From: Candidatus Kuenenia stuttgartensis | GTDB lineage: Bacteria; Planctomycetota; Brocadiia; Brocadiales; Brocadiaceae | Direction: 5' to 3' | Length of the DNA stretch: 32,000 nt | Assembly (NCBI RefSeq): GCF_900232105.1 | Contig: NZ_LT934425.1 | Location: 3,630,001-3,662,000 of the forward strand | Shown here: positions 1-22,310 of the stretch, piece by piece | How positions within the stretch are numbered: the first letter of the stretch is position 1 | How the letters are laid out: the number at the start of each line of letters is the position of its first letter | Translations under genes and position numbers: made by a program | Notes under the pieces: model-generated | What the model was told of the DNA's origin: nothing | What the model saw: the letters and a program-made list of their open reading frames with translations, nothing else | Database searches by the model: none

Positions 1-1935
1 AAGCAAACAGATTTTACGCCTTTTAGAAAACCCATTTCGCTTTCAACTACCACGGAAAAAGTAGAAAAAAAATCGTGGGAATATGAAGTGATGCCGGAGA
101 AGGAGGTTTTAGGAGGAAAGAAAGAGGGAGTACCGGATGAAATTATATATCCTTCTGAGTACAGAAGGCCTGAACCGGCGCTCTATAAACCAGCGTATAC
201 CGGGGAAAAAATTGATATTGCACTCAACTTTGATGATGCAGAAATCAAGGATGTGGTACAGGTAATATTGGGGGAAATTTTAAATGTGAATTATGTGTTG
301 GATAAAAGAGTTGGGGGAAAAGTAAACCTTCATGCCAGCGGAGAAGTCTATAAAGAAGAATTGATCTCTATGCTTAATTCACTCCTTTATGTGTATAATT
401 TTACGATACTGAAAGACGGGAATCTATACAATGTGCTGCCGCAGGCGGAAGCCAGACGGGAAACAAGTATCATTATACACGGAGATAAAATTCCCGAATG
501 GAGTAAAGATATTATTATTCAAATTGTGCCATTGAAATATGCCGACCCGAAAAAATTGAGTTCAACCGTGAAGCAATTCATGTCTAGTATTGGAAATATT
601 GTTACCCACGAAGACTTTCCCTATTTAATGATTATCGATAATGCCTCTGTAATGGAAAAACTGCTTACCATAATAAAAATATTTGATGTGCCTTTTTTAG
701 CAGGGAAAGCCATGAGATTTTATGAGTTTAAATATGTTGATGCACGGAATATGTCGAAGGATCTTGGGAGTTTGGCAAAATCTTTAGGGGCAAAGGTCGG
801 AGGGGACGGGGAATTTGATTTTGTGCCATTCTCAGATACAAATAAATTGATAGTGATTACGAAACTCCCGGAACTCTTGCCTAAAATAGACATGTGGATA
901 AAAAATATCGATGTTCCTCCCACGCAGTTAGACGAGGAAATGAGAGTGTATATATATAAAGTTCAGCACCAGAAAGCAGAGACAATTGTGCCGATTATCA
1001 CTCAGATGTATAGCGAAAAGATGGCGGCGCAGCCGAAGAAGCTTGGAAGAGATATAGTAGAATCAATGAAGGTGCTTGCGGACACTGAAACCAATTCGGT
1101 CATTATGAAGACCTTTCCCAGTGATTACAAGAGCATTAAAGCTATTATAGAAGCAATTGATGCAACCCCGCAACAGGTGTTTATAGAAGTATTGATTGTA
1201 GAAGTCACTCGTAACGATACATTAGACTACGGAACGGAGTGGTTGTGGTCGGGAAGTAATTTGCAAGTATATGGGGTAGGTGATATTGCAAGGGCTGCCG
1301 GTAATGCAGCGGTGCAGTTTACCAACACATTTGCGAAAGGGAGCTTTGAAATTCTTATTGATATTCTCGCCACAAGTTCTAATGCAAAAATACTTTCTGC
1401 GCCGCATATATTAGTACGGGACGAACAACCGGCAAGTATTCAGGTGGGAGAAGAGGTGCCGATTCTTACCAGTTCCGGCCAACAGACGGGCACTACGATT
1501 ACTTTTGAACAGGTACAGTATCGTGATACTGGTATTATCCTTACCGTTACACCACATATTGCCGAAAATGGCCTTATTACACTGGAGGTAAATCAGGAAG
1601 TAAGCAATGCTAAACTAACAGACACAGGCGTTGAGAAATCCCCGACGTTTTCCACTCGTCAGGTGCAAACTTCGCTGGTGATAAAAAGCGGCCATACGAT
1701 AGGTCTTGGTGGTATTATTGAACAAAAAAATGAGAAAGAGGTGAAAAAAATCCCTCTTTTGGGTGATATTCCCTATCTGGGAAATTTGTTTAAGGCGACA
1801 TCGCTTATTGATAAGAGGACTGAGTTAATAATGTTAATTACACCATATATTGCAAATAACGCAGAAGATGCCGATTCGTTAACGCAGGCATTCGAGAAAA
1901 AATTGCAGGAAATTGATTTTCTGGTAAACCAGTAG
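1..1935 (+). CDS. gspD: Secretin, GspD/PilQ-family outer-membrane channel (probably 5'-partial at window edge)
   Basis: ORF 88..1935. It carries a C-terminal secretin signature (LSAPHILVRDEQPASIQVGEEVPILT, IPLLGDIPYLGNLFK, TELIMLITPYI) and an N0-like segment (IDIALNFDDAEIKDVVQVILGEILNVNYVLD). The frame is open from base 1 to 88 and no signal peptide follows the GTG/ATG at 88/91, so the true start is likely upstream of the window. Confidence 0.9.
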   Translation, partial: KQTDFTPFRKPISLSTTTEKVEKKSWEYEVMPEKEVLGGKKEGVPDEIIYPSEYRRPEPALYKPAYTGEKIDIALNFDDAEIKDVVQVILGEILNVNYVLDKRVGGKVNLHASGEVYKEELISMLNSLLYVYNFTILKDGNLYNVLPQAEARRETSIIIHGDKIPEWSKDIIIQIVPLKYADPKKLSSTVKQFMSSIGNIVTHEDFPYLMIIDNASVMEKLLTIIKIFDVPFLAGKAMRFYEFKYVDARNMSKDLGSLAKSLGAKVGGDGEFDFVPFSDTNKLIVITKLPELLPKIDMWIKNIDVPPTQLDEEMRVYIYKVQHQKAETIVPIITQMYSEKMAAQPKKLGRDIVESMKVLADTETNSVIMKTFPSDYKSIKAIIEAIDATPQQVFIEVLIVEVTRNDTLDYGTEWLWSGSNLQVYGVGDIARAAGNAAVQFTNTFAKGSFEILIDILATSSNAKILSAPHILVRDEQPASIQVGEEVPILTSSGQQTGTTITFEQVQYRDTGIILTVTPHIAENGLITLEVNQEVSNAKLTDTGVEKSPTFSTRQVQTSLVIKSGHTIGLGGIIEQKNEKEVKKIPLLGDIPYLGNLFKATSLIDKRTELIMLITPYIANNAEDADSLTQAFEKKLQEIDFLVNQ

Positions 1936-3211: not shown

Positions 3212-4137
3212 TAGTTATAGGATTTATCGCATTAAGTTTTACCCGCAATACCGGTATTGCGATAAAAACCGAATTGGCGTTTACTGAGCGTATAAAAAAT
3301 GTTTATGCTGCCAGAGGGGCATGTATTTATGCGATAAAAATGCTATTGCTCCCGGAAAAACAGGTTAAAAAAACAGAGGATAATAAAAAAAAGCCGCGCG
3401 GGAAAGAGAAGAAGGGACAAAGTGTACGCCAATGGGTACCAAGCAATAAACCGTATTCTGTATTGATAGGGGATAGGAATTGTGATGTGCATATTTACGA
3501 TGAAAGCGGCAAAATAAACATAAATAAGATTACTGATGAGACGAAACAGGGTTTTATTAAATTCCTTTTAGCCCTGAAGATCGAAGAACATGCAGCAGAA
3601 ATTATAACGGATTCTATTTTGGATTGGGTGGATGAGGATGATTTGCACCATGTAAATGGAGCGGAAAAAAATTACTACAGCTCATTACCTGAACCTTACG
3701 AACCGAAAAATGGGGCATTTGAGATAATTGAAGAGTTAACATTAGTAAAGGGCGTTACCCCGCAAGTATTTGAATTATTACGGGAGCATGTAACCATCTA
3801 TGGAGCCGGCAAAATTAATGTTAATTTTGCTTCTAAGGAAGTGTTGCTTTCCGTGCCCGACATTTCACCGGAAATAGTTGATGCGATTATTCAATATAGA
3901 GATGAAAACGGGAAAATAGAAAAATTCGGAGATTTAAAGGAATTATTCAGAGGGTATGGGGTCATAGGCAAATCCTTTCAGGAAGTGACGAAATATTTAA
4001 CCGTGTACGATTCAAGTTTTTTGACAATTAATGCTCTTTCGCACCCTGAAAAATCAGAAAACTCTTATGGCTCTTACAAGATGATTGTGCGGAAAGGCAG
4101 CGGTGATTTTACTATTATTGCGGTATATCCTGATTAA
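3085..4137 (+). CDS. gspK: GspK-like type II secretion minor pseudopilin
   Basis: Has an N-terminal TM helix (GYVLVFSLWTIVVIGFIALSF) and a GspK-like core (NYYSSLPEPYEPKNGAFEIIEELTLVKGVTPQVFELLREHVTIYG, INVNFASKEVLLSVPDISPEIVDAII). The only canonical start before the TM helix is ATG 3085, which gives a 127-nt overlap with the upstream gene. Confidence 0.75.
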   Translation: MEGKNYRENPEGNKTNGNKKWGRTNAYNSNYGYVLVFSLWTIVVIGFIALSFTRNTGIAIKTELAFTERIKNVYAARGACIYAIKMLLLPEKQVKKTEDNKKKPRGKEKKGQSVRQWVPSNKPYSVLIGDRNCDVHIYDESGKININKITDETKQGFIKFLLALKIEEHAAEIITDSILDWVDEDDLHHVNGAEKNYYSSLPEPYEPKNGAFEIIEELTLVKGVTPQVFELLREHVTIYGAGKINVNFASKEVLLSVPDISPEIVDAIIQYRDENGKIEKFGDLKELFRGYGVIGKSFQEVTKYLTVYDSSFLTINALSHPEKSENSYGSYKMIVRKGSGDFTIIAVYPD

Positions 4138-4349
4138 TAAGTGTCTGGCGAAGCCTCCGACCGATAAAAAGATATTTAAACCACAGATATAGGGTGGATT
4201 AAGCGATTGCGAATCCACCTTTCCTGTAAACACTATTGGTGGATTTTTGGTATATAAAAATTTTAAAATTGTAGAACGAAGCGCCTGCTTCGTTATGAGC
4301 GAAGTTGCACTTCGCCCTACATTCAGAAAATCGCCTAAGGACTAATGCT

Positions 4350-10080: not shown

Positions 10081-10314
10081 CGGAAAAGAGGGGGACTTTA
10101 ATTCCTGGGCTAAATCCATGCGCAAAGTGGACAGTTTAGCGCAGGAATTATGTATGGTGTCTCCTGAATTACCTGCGGTTGGATTCTTTACTATTAAATC
10201 AATATGTGAAGTGTATAAAAAAAACTTATAATACCCTTCACCTCCCGACACTCTACTTCTCTTTTTACGTCATTGTTATGCAAAAAACAAACTGCCAATT
10301 AGGTGAGCCATAAG

Positions 10315-11175
10315 ATGAAACTACTGTTGAAATATATGGATAGAATGCCTAAAATAATAATCGCAGCAAGCAGCTCTTTATTGGTTGTTTTTCTTGGCAT
10401 TATAGACTATGCCTCAGGTTCCGAGATATCGTTTTCAATTTTTTATCTGTTGCCTGTGCTAATGGCAACGTGGTTCGCCAAGCGAAGATATGGAGTCGTA
10501 ATCTCTGTTTTCAGTGCAATAACATGGTATCTGGCAGACATCAATTCTGGTCATGCATATTCGCATTATATAATTCCTGTCTGGAACTCGATTATGCGGT
10601 TAGGGTTCTTCTTAATTGTTACCTCCTCCATTGACAAAGTCAGAAATCTGTTAAATAAGGAAAAATCTATGGCGCGAAACGATTTTTTAACGGGAGTGGC
10701 TAATAGGCGTTTTTTTTATGAAATAGCTACAAAAGAAATAGAACGAATTGCAAGATTTATTCACCCATTGTCACTTGCTTATATTGATATCGATAATTTT
10801 AAGCAGGTAAATGATACCCTTGGTCACAGTGCCGGTGATAAACTCTTGCAAGTAGTTGCTGGCACAATAAAAGAAAACATTCGATCAATTGATACAGTAT
10901 CGAGACTCGGAGGTGATGAATTTGCACTTCTAATGCCAGAAACAAATGCTCAAAGTGCTATTACAGCTTTAAATAAATTACGACATGCTCTTTTAGATAT
11001 GGTGCATGAAAATAATTGGCCGGTGACTTTTAGCATAGGCCTTGTCACATGCTCCGAATCTTGCAAATTGAATGAATTAATAAAAGAAGCTGATAATCTC
11101 ATGTACACAATAAAAGCGAGCGGAAAAAACAGAATTGAAAATAAAGTCCACTCATTTAATAAAACAAGTGCATAA
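10315..11175 (+). CDS. Membrane-anchored diguanylate cyclase (GGDEF domain with RxxD I-site)
   Basis: C-terminal GGDEF domain: DFLTGVANRRFF, IDNFKQVNDTLGHSAGD, RLGGDEFALL. RSID lies 5 residues upstream of GGDEF, the canonical I-site position. The N-terminal ~110 aa contain several TM helices. The track start is GTG 10303; ATG 10315 is preferred. Confidence 0.9.
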   Translation: MKLLLKYMDRMPKIIIAASSSLLVVFLGIIDYASGSEISFSIFYLLPVLMATWFAKRRYGVVISVFSAITWYLADINSGHAYSHYIIPVWNSIMRLGFFLIVTSSIDKVRNLLNKEKSMARNDFLTGVANRRFFYEIATKEIERIARFIHPLSLAYIDIDNFKQVNDTLGHSAGDKLLQVVAGTIKENIRSIDTVSRLGGDEFALLMPETNAQSAITALNKLRHALLDMVHENNWPVTFSIGLVTCSESCKLNELIKEADNLMYTIKASGKNRIENKVHSFNKTSA

Positions 11176-11368: not shown

Positions 11369-11740
11369 ATGAGAAAGAGTTCTAATACAGAATTTATGGC
11401 AAAAGTGGCATTAGAAGCGATCAGGGATGAAAAAACGCTAGCAGAGTTGTCATCACAGTACGAAATGCATAGGACGCAAATAGCAAAATGGCGTAAACGA
11501 GCGATAGAAGGATTAGGTGGGATATTTCAGGAGAAGGAGGCGAAGTTAGTCGGAGAGAAGGAGAAAGTAATAGATGAGTTGTATCGGCAAATAAGGAAAT
11601 TGAAGGTGGAGAACGAATGGCTTAAAAAAAATCTACACAGATTGAGCATTCATGAGAAAAGGGGGATGATAGAGGTTTACAATAAGGAGTTAAGCAGTGT
11701 GACTTTTTTGTGGTTACAGAGATCAAACCGGTACTATTAG
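11369..11740 (+). mobile_element. IS3-family transposase OrfA remnant (no DDE OrfB follows; degenerate IS)
   Basis: HTH-type OrfA (TLAELSSQYEMHRTQIAKWRKRA) and a leucine-zipper-like segment (LYRQIRKLKVENEWLKK). An A8 run at ~11624-11631 sits where IS3 slippery sites occur. The sequence decays after ...LQRSNRYY, with only ~220 bp before the next feature. A possible left end, TGACTGGC, is at ~11298. Confidence 0.75.
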
Positions 11741-11956: not shown

Positions 11957-11985
11957 TTGACTAATTAATGTATTTTGGTAAAAGT
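11957..11985 (+). promoter_or_regulatory. Promoter candidate for riboswitch transcript (TTGACT, extended -10 TGGTAAAAG)
   Basis: TTGACT at 11957-11962. After a 16-nt spacer comes TAAAAG at 11979-11984, preceded by TGG (TGn extended -10). It ends just upstream of the aptamer. Confidence 0.45.
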
Positions 11986-12078
11986 GTGCATACAAAGGCA
12001 AACCAATCGTGAGGTTGGGACGCAAAGCCATGGGTCTTATTTTTTGGAAAGAATGCCAGGTTGCCACCTATAATGGTG
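11986..12078 (+). promoter_or_regulatory. c-di-GMP class I (GEMM-I) riboswitch aptamer
   Basis: ACAAAGGCAAACCAATCGTGAGGTTGGGACGCAAAGCCATGGG matches the conserved GEMM-I core (GGCAAACC ... GGGACGCAAAGCC), as in the V. cholerae Vc2 aptamer. The hairpin CCAATC-GTGA-GGTTGG has a GNRA tetraloop at the expected position. A second helix region ends ...GCCAGGTTGCC. Confidence 0.8.
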
Positions 12079-12226
12079 TAAAAGCTGTTTATTGATCAGG
12101 CGCTGAGCCGGTAAGTATTTTGTTTGTAAAAGGTTTAGCTATAAACTTACGGTTGAATCCCTTTTATAAAATGTGATGCTTTATTGATTAGGTTCAAGAT
12201 TTCAATAGGCTTTTAAGATAACCCAA

Positions 12227-12270
12227 AACCCAAGGCATATGTGGCATATTGTCTTGGGTTTTTTTATTTT
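12227..12270 (+). terminator. Intrinsic terminator (probable riboswitch expression platform)
   Basis: AACCCAAGGCATATG-TGG-CATATTGTCTTGGGTT followed by TTTTTTATTTT. It lies between the aptamer and the RBS/ATG of the downstream gene. Confidence 0.75.
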
Positions 12271-12327
12271 ACAATGGGTATAAAATTGTTGTTTTTGTTA
12301 GAGAAATTTTTTTTGGAAAGGAGTAAA

Positions 12328-13461
12328 ATGATGAAAAGGAAATTAGTTTTAAGTGTATGGACGATTGTATTTACAGGTATTTATTTGTCGTTTGTAGTGG
12401 AGGGGGCTGGAGCGGATACCCTTTATAAAACCAGCCTTACCGTCAGTGATTCAAGCGCTTTTGATGGAGACAAATTAGATGCAAGTGTTGAAATAAACAA
12501 AAATGGAAAAGTAAAATTATCAATATCCAATTTAATACATCTTGATACACTACTGTATGCCAATAAAACATGTGCCTTGGTAATTGAAACAGAAGTGAAC
12601 GATATCGCAAAGCCATATGAATTTCCATTTGAGATTGAAGAGGGAATTGCGTTGGAGGATATGGACCTTGTTCTTCAATCAGGCGATAAAGTGGAGATTG
12701 TAAGCGTCGTTATTAACGAAAAGGCTTCCCCTACAGGAACCCCAACGCCTTCTCCCATTGCCGTTGCTTCTCCTTTGCCGGCAGGTTCTCCAACTCCTGT
12801 TGCAACGGCATCTCCAATTGCAACCACCTCGCCCGTTGTGACGCCTACCGCAACTGTTGCGCCATACTCAACCTCTGTTTTGGAAGTTTCGGCAGAGATA
12901 TCCGGGGATGATGTTGAATTGCTGGTTCCGGGAGGTTTGATTACTGATGCCGAAATAACGCCTACACCAACGTCATTTGCCACGCCTGCGGCAACGCCAA
13001 CAGAACCTTCTGCAACTCCCACATCAACACCAGTCGAGACGCCTTCTGTAATAGAGGCATATGTGAGCTTCCAGTCAAAGACGATAAATCTTAATAGTAA
13101 CGGTAAGTTTATTGCCAATATAAAACTACCTTCCACGCATAATATCGAAGATATAGTATGTGAAACAGTAGTGTGTGAAGGTGCTGTTGCAATTGATTGT
13201 GATGAAAAAAAGAATAAACTTAAGGTCAAGTTTAATATAAGTGATTTAGAAGTTGGTTTAGATTTAAAAACAAGTGAATCACAAAGTGTTGAATTTACCA
13301 TTACAGGGGAATTATCAGATGGTACAAAATTCGAGGGAAGCGATACCGTTAAGGTGAAGGGAAGTAAGAAGGGAAAAAACGATGACAACGACGATGAAGA
13401 CGAAGACGATGATGATGGCGATAAAGGCAAGGACAAGGGAAAAGGGAAAAATCGACGCTAA
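12328..13461 (+). CDS. Secreted protein of unknown function with Pro/Thr-rich linkers and a highly charged D/E/K C-terminal tail
   Basis: RBS GGAAAGGAG (12315-12323) and ATG 12328. The signal peptide is MMKRKLVLSVWTIVFTGIYLSFVVEGAGA. PT-rich linkers include SPTGTPTPSPIAVASPLPAGSPTPVATASP and TPTPTSFATPAATPTEPSATPTSTPVETP. A C-terminal beta-rich module is KTINLNSNGKFIANIKLP...VEFTITGELSDGTKFEGSDTVKVKG. The tail is NDDNDDEDEDDDDGDKGKDKGKGKNRR. The track start 12241 lies inside the terminator. Confidence 0.75.
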   Translation: MMKRKLVLSVWTIVFTGIYLSFVVEGAGADTLYKTSLTVSDSSAFDGDKLDASVEINKNGKVKLSISNLIHLDTLLYANKTCALVIETEVNDIAKPYEFPFEIEEGIALEDMDLVLQSGDKVEIVSVVINEKASPTGTPTPSPIAVASPLPAGSPTPVATASPIATTSPVVTPTATVAPYSTSVLEVSAEISGDDVELLVPGGLITDAEITPTPTSFATPAATPTEPSATPTSTPVETPSVIEAYVSFQSKTINLNSNGKFIANIKLPSTHNIEDIVCETVVCEGAVAIDCDEKKNKLKVKFNISDLEVGLDLKTSESQSVEFTITGELSDGTKFEGSDTVKVKGSKKGKNDDNDDEDEDDDDGDKGKDKGKGKNRR

Positions 13462-13549
13462 TGAACAATCGTAGGATTGAGATTAAATTTGAATGGTTAA
13501 TCAAAGATTTTATTCGGTTAGAGGTATCGTAGAGAAAGGAAAAAACCTT

Positions 13550-13590
13550 TCCCAACCTCTTGAAAGAGAGGTTGGGAGGCTTTTCCTTTT
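13550..13590 (+). terminator. Rho-independent terminator
   Basis: Perfect 11-bp stem TCCCAACCTCT / AGAGGTTGGGA with loop TGAAAG, followed by GGCTTTTCCTTTT. Confidence 0.8.
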
Positions 13591-13698
13591 GGGAATGTTG
13601 CAGACTATTAAAAAGGGTTGATTAGTAATAAAAGCTGCTGCCGATAAGATAGTTTGGTCAAAATTTGATATCACTTAGGAGGTGAAAAGGAGATTATT

Positions 13699-13890
13699 AT
13701 GGATAATACGTTGACAAATCTTGCGCAAAGCATGTCGAATAACGTGGTTATGGCAAAACAAGCCATGGAGTCAATGAAAACGGAAGGCGCTACAATTTTA
13801 AAGCTTATTGGGGATTCTGAAAGTGTGCGGACAGATAAGGGAGCAACTAATCCTGATGGTGTTGGTAAAAATGTTGACGTTTTCGCCTAG
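13699..13890 (+). CDS. Small YjfB-like (putative motility protein family) protein
   Basis: Strong RBS (AGGAGGTGAAAAGGAG). The 63-aa product MDNTLTNLAQSMSNNVVMAKQAMESMKTEGATILKLI...GKNVDVFA resembles, from memory, the YjfB-like pattern: an N-terminal MD..., a central VMKKAMD-like segment, and a C-terminal G.N.D..A. Confidence 0.6.
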   Translation: MDNTLTNLAQSMSNNVVMAKQAMESMKTEGATILKLIGDSESVRTDKGATNPDGVGKNVDVFA

Positions 13891-13920
13891 GAACTTGTCC
13901 ATAAATATGGTCAAACAAAT

Positions 13921-14072
13921 ACTAACATTTTAATTTTTTGAAAAATTCCAATAATAACATTGTCTTGCCGCACGATATAGGGGCGAAGCATTTGCAATAA
14001 CTGGCATACATGCGTTCATGCCCAAACATGCAAATGCTTCGCCCCTACGGTTTCAAAAAACTAAAGTGTTAC
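13921..14072. mobile_element. MITE-like palindromic element, family A, copy A2
   Basis: Same architecture as A1. The inner 18-bp hairpin is perfect: AGGGGCGAAGCATTTGCA (13979-13996) / TGCAAATGCTTCGCCCCT (14029-14046). The right terminal repeat is TTTCAAAAAACTAAAGTGTTAC. It is flanked by a perfect 7-bp direct duplication, AACAAAT (13914-13920 and 14073-14079). Confidence 0.8.
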
Positions 14073-21912: not shown

Positions 21913-22310
21913 GCATGCAATATTAAACTTAAGCAACATTTCTGTCAAGAGAATCAAATGAACATCCGAAAACAAAAACCCCCTGATTGTTTTCAGACAA
22001 AAGTATTCCATTTTAAAAAAACTATTATTTGTAAAACTTTTTTTCGCTTGCCAGAAAATATATTTATTGCTAACATGAATTTACTTTTAAGGGCTCTGCC
22101 ATGTACGTGGATAGAGGTATAATTTTTAAGACCTATAACAATAATTTGGGATCCCGTCTTTGTTAGTGGCGTATATAGTCTCCAGTGAGAAAAATACAAA
22201 GCTATCATTGGGAATACCACCGTAAAATACGGGTCATTTAAAAAAAACTCACACGGCATTGCGGTGGAGCCTTTATGCCTATCAATACAACTGAAACAAC
22301 AAAAATAGAC

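Follow-up and report, generated by a model that had tools for sequence, protein, structure and literature searches.

The stretch of DNA analysed here (the window) comprises 32,000 nucleotides (nt) of the complete, 4.41-Mb genome of the anammox bacterium Candidatus Kuenenia stuttgartensis (contig NZ_LT934425.1, positions 3,630,001 to 3,662,000 of the forward strand). It contains a cyclic di-GMP (c-di-GMP) riboswitch followed by a gene for an exported protein, P0001, which we refer to as its cargo. A preliminary description of the locus listed an upstream aptamer, a protein with a signal peptide, two linkers, several quoted peptides and a charged tail, and a terminator belonging to the gene, all of which are present as described. 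The features of the leader and the cargo gene are given below in window coordinates. Structural assignments refer to an AlphaFold2 model of P0001 built with 46 homologues, with confidence expressed as the predicted local distance difference test (pLDDT).

11959..11987, plus strand: putative promoter-like stretch (TTGACT, about 17 nt, TAAAAG), kept in three Kuenenia leaders
11988..12069, plus strand: c-di-GMP-I (GEMM-I) aptamer; RF03167, 61.5 bits (threshold 59), E 2e-12
12027..12037, plus strand: 5' strand of aptamer stem P3, the anti-terminator arm (segment A)
12079..12215, plus strand: long spacer hairpin of 137 nt that brings aptamer and terminator close to each other in minimum-free-energy folds
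12226..12270, plus strand: leader intrinsic terminator, with a 5' arm (B, 12226-12241), a 3' arm (C) and a T-run; hairpin -19.2 kcal/mol
12316..12324, plus strand: Shine-Dalgarno sequence GGAAAGGAG, read from the sequence and kept in the leader alignment
12328..13461, plus strand: cargo gene P0001, a 377-amino-acid (aa) open reading frame (ORF)
12328..12414, plus strand: Sec-type signal peptide assigned from sequence, residues 1-29 (helix 5-23 in the model), predicted cut between AGA and D
12415..12720, plus strand: N-terminal beta-sandwich, residues 30-131, pLDDT 83-91
12721..12912, plus strand: Pro/Thr/Ala/Ser linker 1, residues 132-195, 67% P+T+S+A, pLDDT below 50
12913..12945, plus strand: invariant LLVPGG island between the linkers, residues 196-206, in which P201, G202 and G203 are invariant
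12946..13044, plus strand: Pro/Thr linker 2, residues 207-239, 79% P+T+S+A
13045..13362, plus strand: C-terminal immunoglobulin (Ig)-like beta-sandwich, residues 240-345, pLDDT 79-96
13363..13458, plus strand: charged tail, residues 346-377, Lys-rich, then poly-Asp/Glu, then a Lys/Gly/Arg end
13548..13589, plus strand: intrinsic terminator of the cargo gene, a bidirectional hairpin with a 14-bp stem (13548-13579) and a T-run

The ATG at 12328 is backed as the start codon by the Shine-Dalgarno sequence and by 17 aligned homologues, all of which begin M(M)K(K/R) and continue into a hydrophobic helix. A public 395-aa version, P0003, would begin at 12274, within the T-run region of the leader terminator; since the homologues and the Shine-Dalgarno sequence favour 12328, that start is probably 18 codons too early. 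The signal peptide has the parts of a Sec-type signal (MMKRK, a 19-residue hydrophobic stretch with a mean Kyte-Doolittle value of 2.18, and AGA before the cut) and no lipobox Cys, and the predicted mature protein has 348 aa and an isoelectric point of about 4.4. Both linkers are disordered in the model. Statistics on motif, tail and composition were drawn from 92 unique full-length relatives, of which 87 carry the motif [LIVM]x[VA]PGG in the island between the linkers. The island forms a strand in the model (197-202, pLDDT about 50), which structural alignments place, at low confidence, with the N-terminal sandwich (model range 31..202). The charged tail, with 13 Asp or Glu and 10 Lys or Arg among its 32 residues in P0001, is a family trait as judged from the alignment: an acidic run of at least four residues lies within the last 45 residues of 76/92 relatives (longest run: median 7, maximum 23), the C-terminal end is basic in 77/92, and His stands beside the Asp run in 80/92 tails. 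Some members have a second Asp-rich insert in the N-terminal domain. Searches with Pfam and NCBIfam found no LPXTG, PEP-CTERM, type IX secretion system (T9SS) C-terminal domain or GlyGly-CTERM signal in P0001, whose tail is wholly charged.

Consistent with the preliminary description, which recognised no characterised family, no Pfam or NCBIfam model fits P0001, and no clear homology overturned that view. There is no NCBIfam match, the only Pfam row is SdiA-regulated (E 0.092), no adhesin or surface-layer (S-layer) model in either database matches, and profile searches against PDB gave nothing below E 0.01. The literature searches made found nothing on the protein or on Kuenenia riboswitches. 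Homologues in Kuenenia sp. and K. hertensis share 96% and 70% protein identity with P0001, respectively, and a word-indexed search returned 57 relatives at E <= 0.001, the named ones all belonging to Brocadiaceae or to unclassified Planctomycetes bins. An exhaustive HMMER search gave 982 clusters at E <= 0.001, nearly all of them matching the C-terminal domain only; just 9 reached E <= 1e-30, and each of these consists of full-length members of the family. Since nearly all of these 982 clusters align only to residues about 200-350, the N-terminal domain is, as far as sequence similarity reaches, specific to this anammox family. It had been described as unrecognised, and indeed neither a curated family nor any sequence relative outside the family, solved structures included, was detected; nor was a duplication linking it to the C-terminal domain (hhalign probability 1.2%). 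Its best structural match is a Cu,Zn-superoxide-dismutase-like Greek-key sandwich (Z 7.7). We rejected an identity as superoxide dismutase because the likeness is at the fold level only and no His occurs among the invariant or near-invariant columns. A whole-model Foldseek search against PDB and Swiss-Prot models returned only two-lobe matches (integrin, Vps26), which are meaningless because of the long disordered linkers.

With the N-terminal domain as marker, the family is present in 21/44 Brocadiaceae genomes and 5/12 genera, with up to three copies per genome. These include 4/4 Kuenenia genomes (a single copy in the genome under study) and 9/14 genomes of the genus under which the Brocadia records fall; no family gene was found in the seven other Brocadiaceae genera, several of which have complete genomes. 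In Brocadia and many groundwater bins the gene lies between a divergent mutL and a gene for a glcF-like Fe-S protein, a setting from which the surroundings in Kuenenia differ. The cargo gene is an accessory gene, and this distribution argues against a core role in the anammoxosome. In loci L003-L012, Rfam gives repeated weak, sub-threshold matches on both strands at about 3960-4260, directly past the homologue's stop codon (MicX, sraA, L20 leader and CsrC/RsmZ; 16-33 bits). They cover the gene's 3' end and the spacer that separates it from the glcF-like gene, and their probable source is the GAT/GAC repeats coding for poly-Asp together with a terminator.

The composition of the tail and the taxonomic range of the family bear on the possibility that P0001 is a periplasmic or anammoxosomal cation-binding protein, whose poly-Asp/His/Lys tail would serve to buffer or supply a metal such as Ca2+ or Fe. 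The His residues flanking most acidic runs, the length of these runs (up to 23 residues), the second Asp-rich insert and the restriction to anammox bacteria would all suit such a role, as would the use of Sec signals for internal compartments in these organisms. We nevertheless consider it improbable, since absence from 7/12 genera, complete genomes included, sets the family apart from the core anammox machinery, long Pro/Thr linkers together with this C-terminal domain are typical of extracellular proteins, and the riboswitch-controlled paralogues L118 and L121 have no such tail.

The C-terminal domain had been described as a beta-rich module. It is indeed a beta-sandwich, but it is not unique to this protein: with about 980 sequence clusters it is, by sequence, a widespread module that is shared by bacteria and archaea and terminates many surface proteins. 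A 63-member alignment gives a signature over about 105 residues (TVxCEGAxA and TGEL-DGT-FEGSDT-[RK]V). No curated Pfam or NCBIfam model fits the 63 members scanned, among which sub-threshold matches were to Glucodextran_B (7/63) and Ig_like_ice (6/63). Its partners include NosD/beta-helix, RCC1, SdrD_B, DUF3344, IgGFc-binding and amidase_3/SpoIID proteins. In 103/151 non-family proteins the domain lies at the extreme C-terminus (at most five residues after it, typically KGKGK or GGKK), about 15 of the 151 have an Asp/Glu-rich tail after it as in P0001, and in a few it is followed by a T9SS-like or dockerin-like end. Structural neighbours (Z about 7) are Ig-like accessory domains of secreted peptidases and other enzymes, S-layer domains and adhesins, and template modelling (TM) scores of 0.6-0.7 link it to Atlas clusters of Bathyarchaeota and Planctomycetota that are uncharacterised. 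Few Planctomycetota genomes (12/249) have the domain. That proteins with this domain generally stand behind c-di-GMP riboswitches was rejected, as the flanks searched had no aptamer at 47 loci sharing only the C-terminal domain or at five acid-tailed loci (some archaeal). The genes for two archaeal proteins with the domain and long Asp/Glu-rich tails (L108:2501-4081 and L109:2501-4678) each lie beside an archaeal-type pheT in divergent orientation, which is conserved synteny of an uncharacterised surface protein.

The best Rfam model of the Kuenenia aptamer is that of the GGC variant, rather than RF01051. All ten anammox aptamers contain GGCAAACC and GACGCAAAG; at the position that is G in the consensus of the GGC variant, they have the A of canonical c-di-GMP-I, and their core is invariant. 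We take this variant-defining position to be A47 of Vc2, in which G20, A47 and C92 are presumably the canonical ligand-contact nucleotides. Because A is found there in all ten, we treat the anammox aptamers as ordinary c-di-GMP sensors, and the Kuenenia aptamer is predicted to be one.

Aptamers pass the Rfam thresholds upstream of family genes at L001 and L002 (both Kuenenia), L011, L021 and the groundwater loci L031, L033, L034 and L038. A covariance model built from the ten anammox aptamers added L117 (two in tandem), L118, L120 and L121. Besides the window, thirteen family loci were counted as carrying an aptamer. The window, L001, L002 and L021 form a Kuenenia clade of riboswitch-bearing loci. 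Among the aptamer-less loci are all those of Brocadia and, in two genomes of the genus Kuenenia, the second paralogue. On the protein tree the riboswitch label requires five changes, at least three of them forced, and falls into at least three separate groups, with riboswitch-bearing genes on deep branches of both main clades. The coupling of riboswitch and family is therefore a recurring one and not a local accident, whether it reflects an old link that was often lost or repeated gains. The preliminary description had asked whether homologues are also preceded by GEMM-I; the association recurs in several genera, whereas most homologues, including those of Brocadia, are without it, so that the link is real but not universal.

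Three observations concern individual loci of this set. At L117:1152-1418 (G275, another Brocadiaceae genus) the homologue stands behind tandem c-di-GMP-I aptamers (78 and 81 bits), the second of which ends 31 nt ahead of the start codon. Brocadia sp. WS118 has a c-di-GMP-I aptamer (L010:5922-6004; 38.7 bits with Rfam, 44.9 bits with the covariance model) that lies about 1.9 kb downstream of a riboswitch-less homologue, past the glcF-like gene. In the groundwater clade, matches to group II intron D1-D4-4 (36 bits, below the gathering score of 49) follow the riboswitch-controlled homologue at a distance of a few hundred bases (L031:1710-1828, L034:2041-2159 and L038:2770-2888, minus strand).

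The Kuenenia genome has seven GEMM-I matches including the aptamer of the window, the six others being at genome positions 1687677-1687770, 1231993-1232077, 591797-591879, 2705405-2705484, 2703174-2703253 and 3231489-3231534. Downstream of these others are two prepilin-type DUF1559 genes, an Amidase_2 wall hydrolase, a PAS sensor, a TPR protein, a large signal-peptide protein without a Pfam match in its first 489 residues and a transposase-looking ORF, the last judged by look rather than by Pfam. Together they resemble a small regulon under c-di-GMP riboswitches, in which envelope and surface functions prevail, and the cargo fits among them. Directly upstream of the riboswitch are a GGDEF diguanylate cyclase gene (10303-11175) and an IS3-type OrfA remnant (11369-11740). 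Neither turned up in the 3 kb that precede the orthologous locus in the close relative L001, and the adjacency of GGDEF gene and riboswitch was therefore given no weight.

In Kuenenia the expression platform is split, the aptamer being separated from the terminator by the long spacer hairpin. The spacer sequence is unique in the genome, by which its identification as a repeat or miniature inverted-repeat transposable element (MITE) was rejected. At equilibrium the leader terminator (12226-12263 plus the T-run) has a probability of about 1 and is compatible with a folded aptamer. In a nascent transcript lacking the terminator 3' arm, 12228-12236 pairs instead with 12027-12035 (probability 0.85-0.98), so that arm B has two mutually exclusive partners, aptamer strand A and terminator arm C. 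This A:B pairing is repeated in L002 and L021 (probability 0.94-1.0), and L001 uses the same stretch of the aptamer but with arm B in a shifted register (about 0.9). The sequence of the arm is AAGACCC in K. hertensis and L021, a better fit to the aptamer strand, and the K. hertensis terminator is kept with arm changes. Aptamer, anti-terminator and terminator are conserved in all four Kuenenia leaders, and their arms change together. Since the anti-terminator uses an aptamer strand, ligand binding would free the arm and let the terminator form, and on balance the Kuenenia leader seems to be an OFF switch at high c-di-GMP. The first aptamer of L117 has the same OFF design in a balanced form (A:B duplex -22.6 versus B:C duplex -21.6 kcal/mol). 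At L011 and L120, the terminator 5' arm is the aptamer's own 3' strand, a classic ON layout, which suggests that orthologues may respond in opposite directions. The L038 aptamer and the second one at L117 have no clear platform, each ending some 32 nt short of the start codon.

These layouts are central to the proposal that P0001 is a matrix protein or adhesin switched on by high c-di-GMP, which would glue cells into aggregates or granules. The preliminary description had pointed this way in suggesting a c-di-GMP-gated matrix, adhesin or surface-layer component. The export signal and the tie to the riboswitch stand, but the implied logic of high c-di-GMP driving a matrix protein is not suggested in Kuenenia, where the leader is built as an OFF switch. 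A high-c-di-GMP adhesin would be consistent with the ON-type leaders of L011 and L120, with a layout of head, stalk and foot that suits an adhesin, and with the link between higher c-di-GMP and more extracellular polymer in anammox granules described in a review (PMC11224092). We regard it as rather unlikely, as no adhesin family matches P0001 and, in the four leaders of the Kuenenia clade, aptamer and terminator can coexist, the sole competing pairing being the anti-terminator.

The promoter-like stretch before the aptamer failed a strict consensus scan, and a consensus scan found no promoter-like site between the leader terminator and the start codon. A consensus-like site (TGGAAA, 18 nt, TATAAT; 12045-12074; 10/12 matches) overlaps the 3' end of the aptamer, and a transcript starting from it would bypass the sensor. 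Such sites are no commoner here than in shuffled sequence, and K. hertensis does not retain the TATAAT. The region is represented in four RNA libraries, all in the form of assembled contigs, one of which spans 11994-14059. In run X1 the mean word depth is 299 over this span, 18-45 just downstream and 96 in the next gene.

The riboswitch might also be a decayed or ligand-switched relic, leaving the gene in effect constitutive or under another signal. The better match to the GGC variant model than to RF01051, a terminator that forms regardless of the aptamer at equilibrium and the many homologues that do without a riboswitch would be compatible with such decay. We judge it very improbable, because the core is invariant in the ten anammox aptamers with A retained at the variant-defining position, the arms of the conserved elements covary in the four Kuenenia leaders, and several genera show the same association, in one case with two aptamers in tandem.

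We tentatively favour the reading that P0001 is an exported, strongly acidic, anammox-only protein with a head, a stalk and a foot, coupled to c-di-GMP and, in Kuenenia, made when c-di-GMP is low. The head would be the family-specific N-terminal beta-sandwich, the exposed functional end; the stalk would be the long Pro/Thr spacers, which are probably extended; and the foot would be the C-terminal Ig-like module with its Lys/poly-Asp/Lys tail. Module and tail together could hold the protein on the cell envelope or matrix via charge or divalent-cation contacts, and the protein could thereby alter surface charge, cation binding or adhesion. In the ligand-free RNA, the 5' strand of P3 would pair with the terminator 5' arm, forming an anti-terminator and allowing read-through, and in the c-di-GMP-bound RNA the terminator 5' arm would be freed and the terminator would form. 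The attachment role, surface location and physiological effect proposed here draw on domain company, composition and regulation, and an extracellular matrix or adhesin role is plausible.

Several points weigh against this reading. In anammox bacteria a Sec signal may also direct a protein to an internal compartment (the periplasm or the anammoxosome). Structure searches on the two modules did recover beta-sandwiches, but both folds are generic, the best Z of 7.7 falling below the structural tool's own noise level of about 8. The C-terminal domain occurs only once in the Kuenenia genome, for which reason its use as a general sorting or export tag in Kuenenia was rejected. L118 and L121, although riboswitch-controlled, have no acidic tail, so that the tail is not essential to the family. 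About 28 further family loci for which 350 nt or more of sequence upstream could be searched gave no aptamer with Rfam or the covariance model, and orthologues may have platforms of opposite sign. In the Kuenenia leader the terminator forms whatever the aptamer does at equilibrium, and the anti-terminator duplex is the weaker one (-14.0 versus -22.9 kcal/mol for the terminator); any switching must therefore be kinetic. Transcript ends and terminator read-through are unreadable in the RNA data, which consist of contigs only and have a similar depth upstream of the aptamer.

Anammox bacteria are central to nitrogen removal from wastewater, where it is of practical importance whether they grow singly or in granules. 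The proteins behind this choice are poorly known, and the locus offers a testable candidate tied to a lifestyle second messenger, with orthologous genes whose riboswitch wiring is apparently opposite. A wider picture, improbable when taken as a whole, is that of a surface coat under c-di-GMP that helps to decide between single and aggregated or mineralising cells: a low-c-di-GMP, cation-binding brush in Kuenenia and the opposite wiring elsewhere, with the C-terminal domain plus tail acting as a new, widespread envelope-attachment module of bacteria and archaea.

Downstream of the cargo gene, the preliminary description had placed a gene coding for a 63-aa YjfB-like protein.

13699..13890, plus strand: 63-aa ORF P0002 with a strong Shine-Dalgarno sequence; a separate unit of doubtful coding status

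The ORF and its strong ribosome-binding site are present, but neither a YjfB identity nor membership in the cargo is supported. P0002 scores 18.5 bits against YjfB_motility (PF14070), below the cut-off of 27 (18.3 bits, E 0.0096 in the genome search), and lies behind a strong terminator. Its relatives are restricted to two near-identical genomes, those of K. stuttgartiensis type and of one Kuenenia sp., and no such ORF was found after the K. hertensis homologue. Compared with L001, there are four synonymous and six non-synonymous codon changes, and the nucleotide identity of 94.8% equals that of neighbouring non-coding DNA (94.2%); in this comparison P0002 gives no sign of purifying selection. 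The octamer GCCGATAA is similar to a sigma-28 -10 box and lies 51 nt upstream of the ATG, with no TAAA at -35. A sigma-28 (SigD/FliA) promoter is not supported, since this octamer is frequent genome-wide (196 occurrences versus 119 expected). We regard P0002 as a separate, doubtful gene that is not part of the cargo. Elsewhere in the window, a 6S RNA (RF00013, 55.8 bits) is located at 22090-22271 on the plus strand.

Among known surface proteins, the staphylococcal Sdr/Clf proteins, with their poly-Asp/Ser-Asp stalks, resemble P0001 in being exported and in having a long acidic low-complexity tract. P0001 differs from them in having neither an LPXTG signal nor a sortase, and the acidic run of its family is short (5-23 residues), very C-terminal and flanked by Lys and His; no sequence relationship to poly-Asp/Ser-Asp stalk surface proteins was found. 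Kustd1514 and BROSI_A1236 are reportedly anammox-specific exported glycoproteins with Ser/Thr-rich regions, implicated in the cell surface or biofilm matrix. P0001 shares anammox specificity and export with them and has Thr-rich linkers, but they are much larger, and P0001 has no detectable similarity to curated S-layer models. The likeness of its C-terminal domain to domains of EA1, Sap and SbsC is structural only (Z about 7). As with PPC, Glucodextran_B and Big/Ig-like accessory domains, this domain is a beta-sandwich of about 105 residues at the C-terminus of exported proteins; unlike them, it falls below every curated threshold, has its own signature and usually ends in a short KGKGK-type tail.

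The closest regulatory parallels are the Vibrio cholerae Vc1 riboswitch with gbpA and the Clostridioides difficile c-di-GMP riboswitches before CD2831/CD3246 and zmpI. C. difficile pilA1 also stands behind a c-di-GMP riboswitch, according to work cited in a review (PMC11224092). In the V. cholerae and C. difficile cases, as in Kuenenia, the gene encodes a secreted or surface protein and has a c-di-GMP aptamer in its 5' leader, and, as in this family, control is by a terminator, with both ON and OFF versions in existence. In contrast to them, the Kuenenia cargo belongs to an unrelated, anammox-only family with no known domain, its platform is split by a 137-nt hairpin, and its orthologues have platforms of seemingly opposite sign. 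What is new at this locus is the cargo family, the C-terminal module that no curated model covers, the splitting of the platform and a wiring that seems opposite among orthologues.

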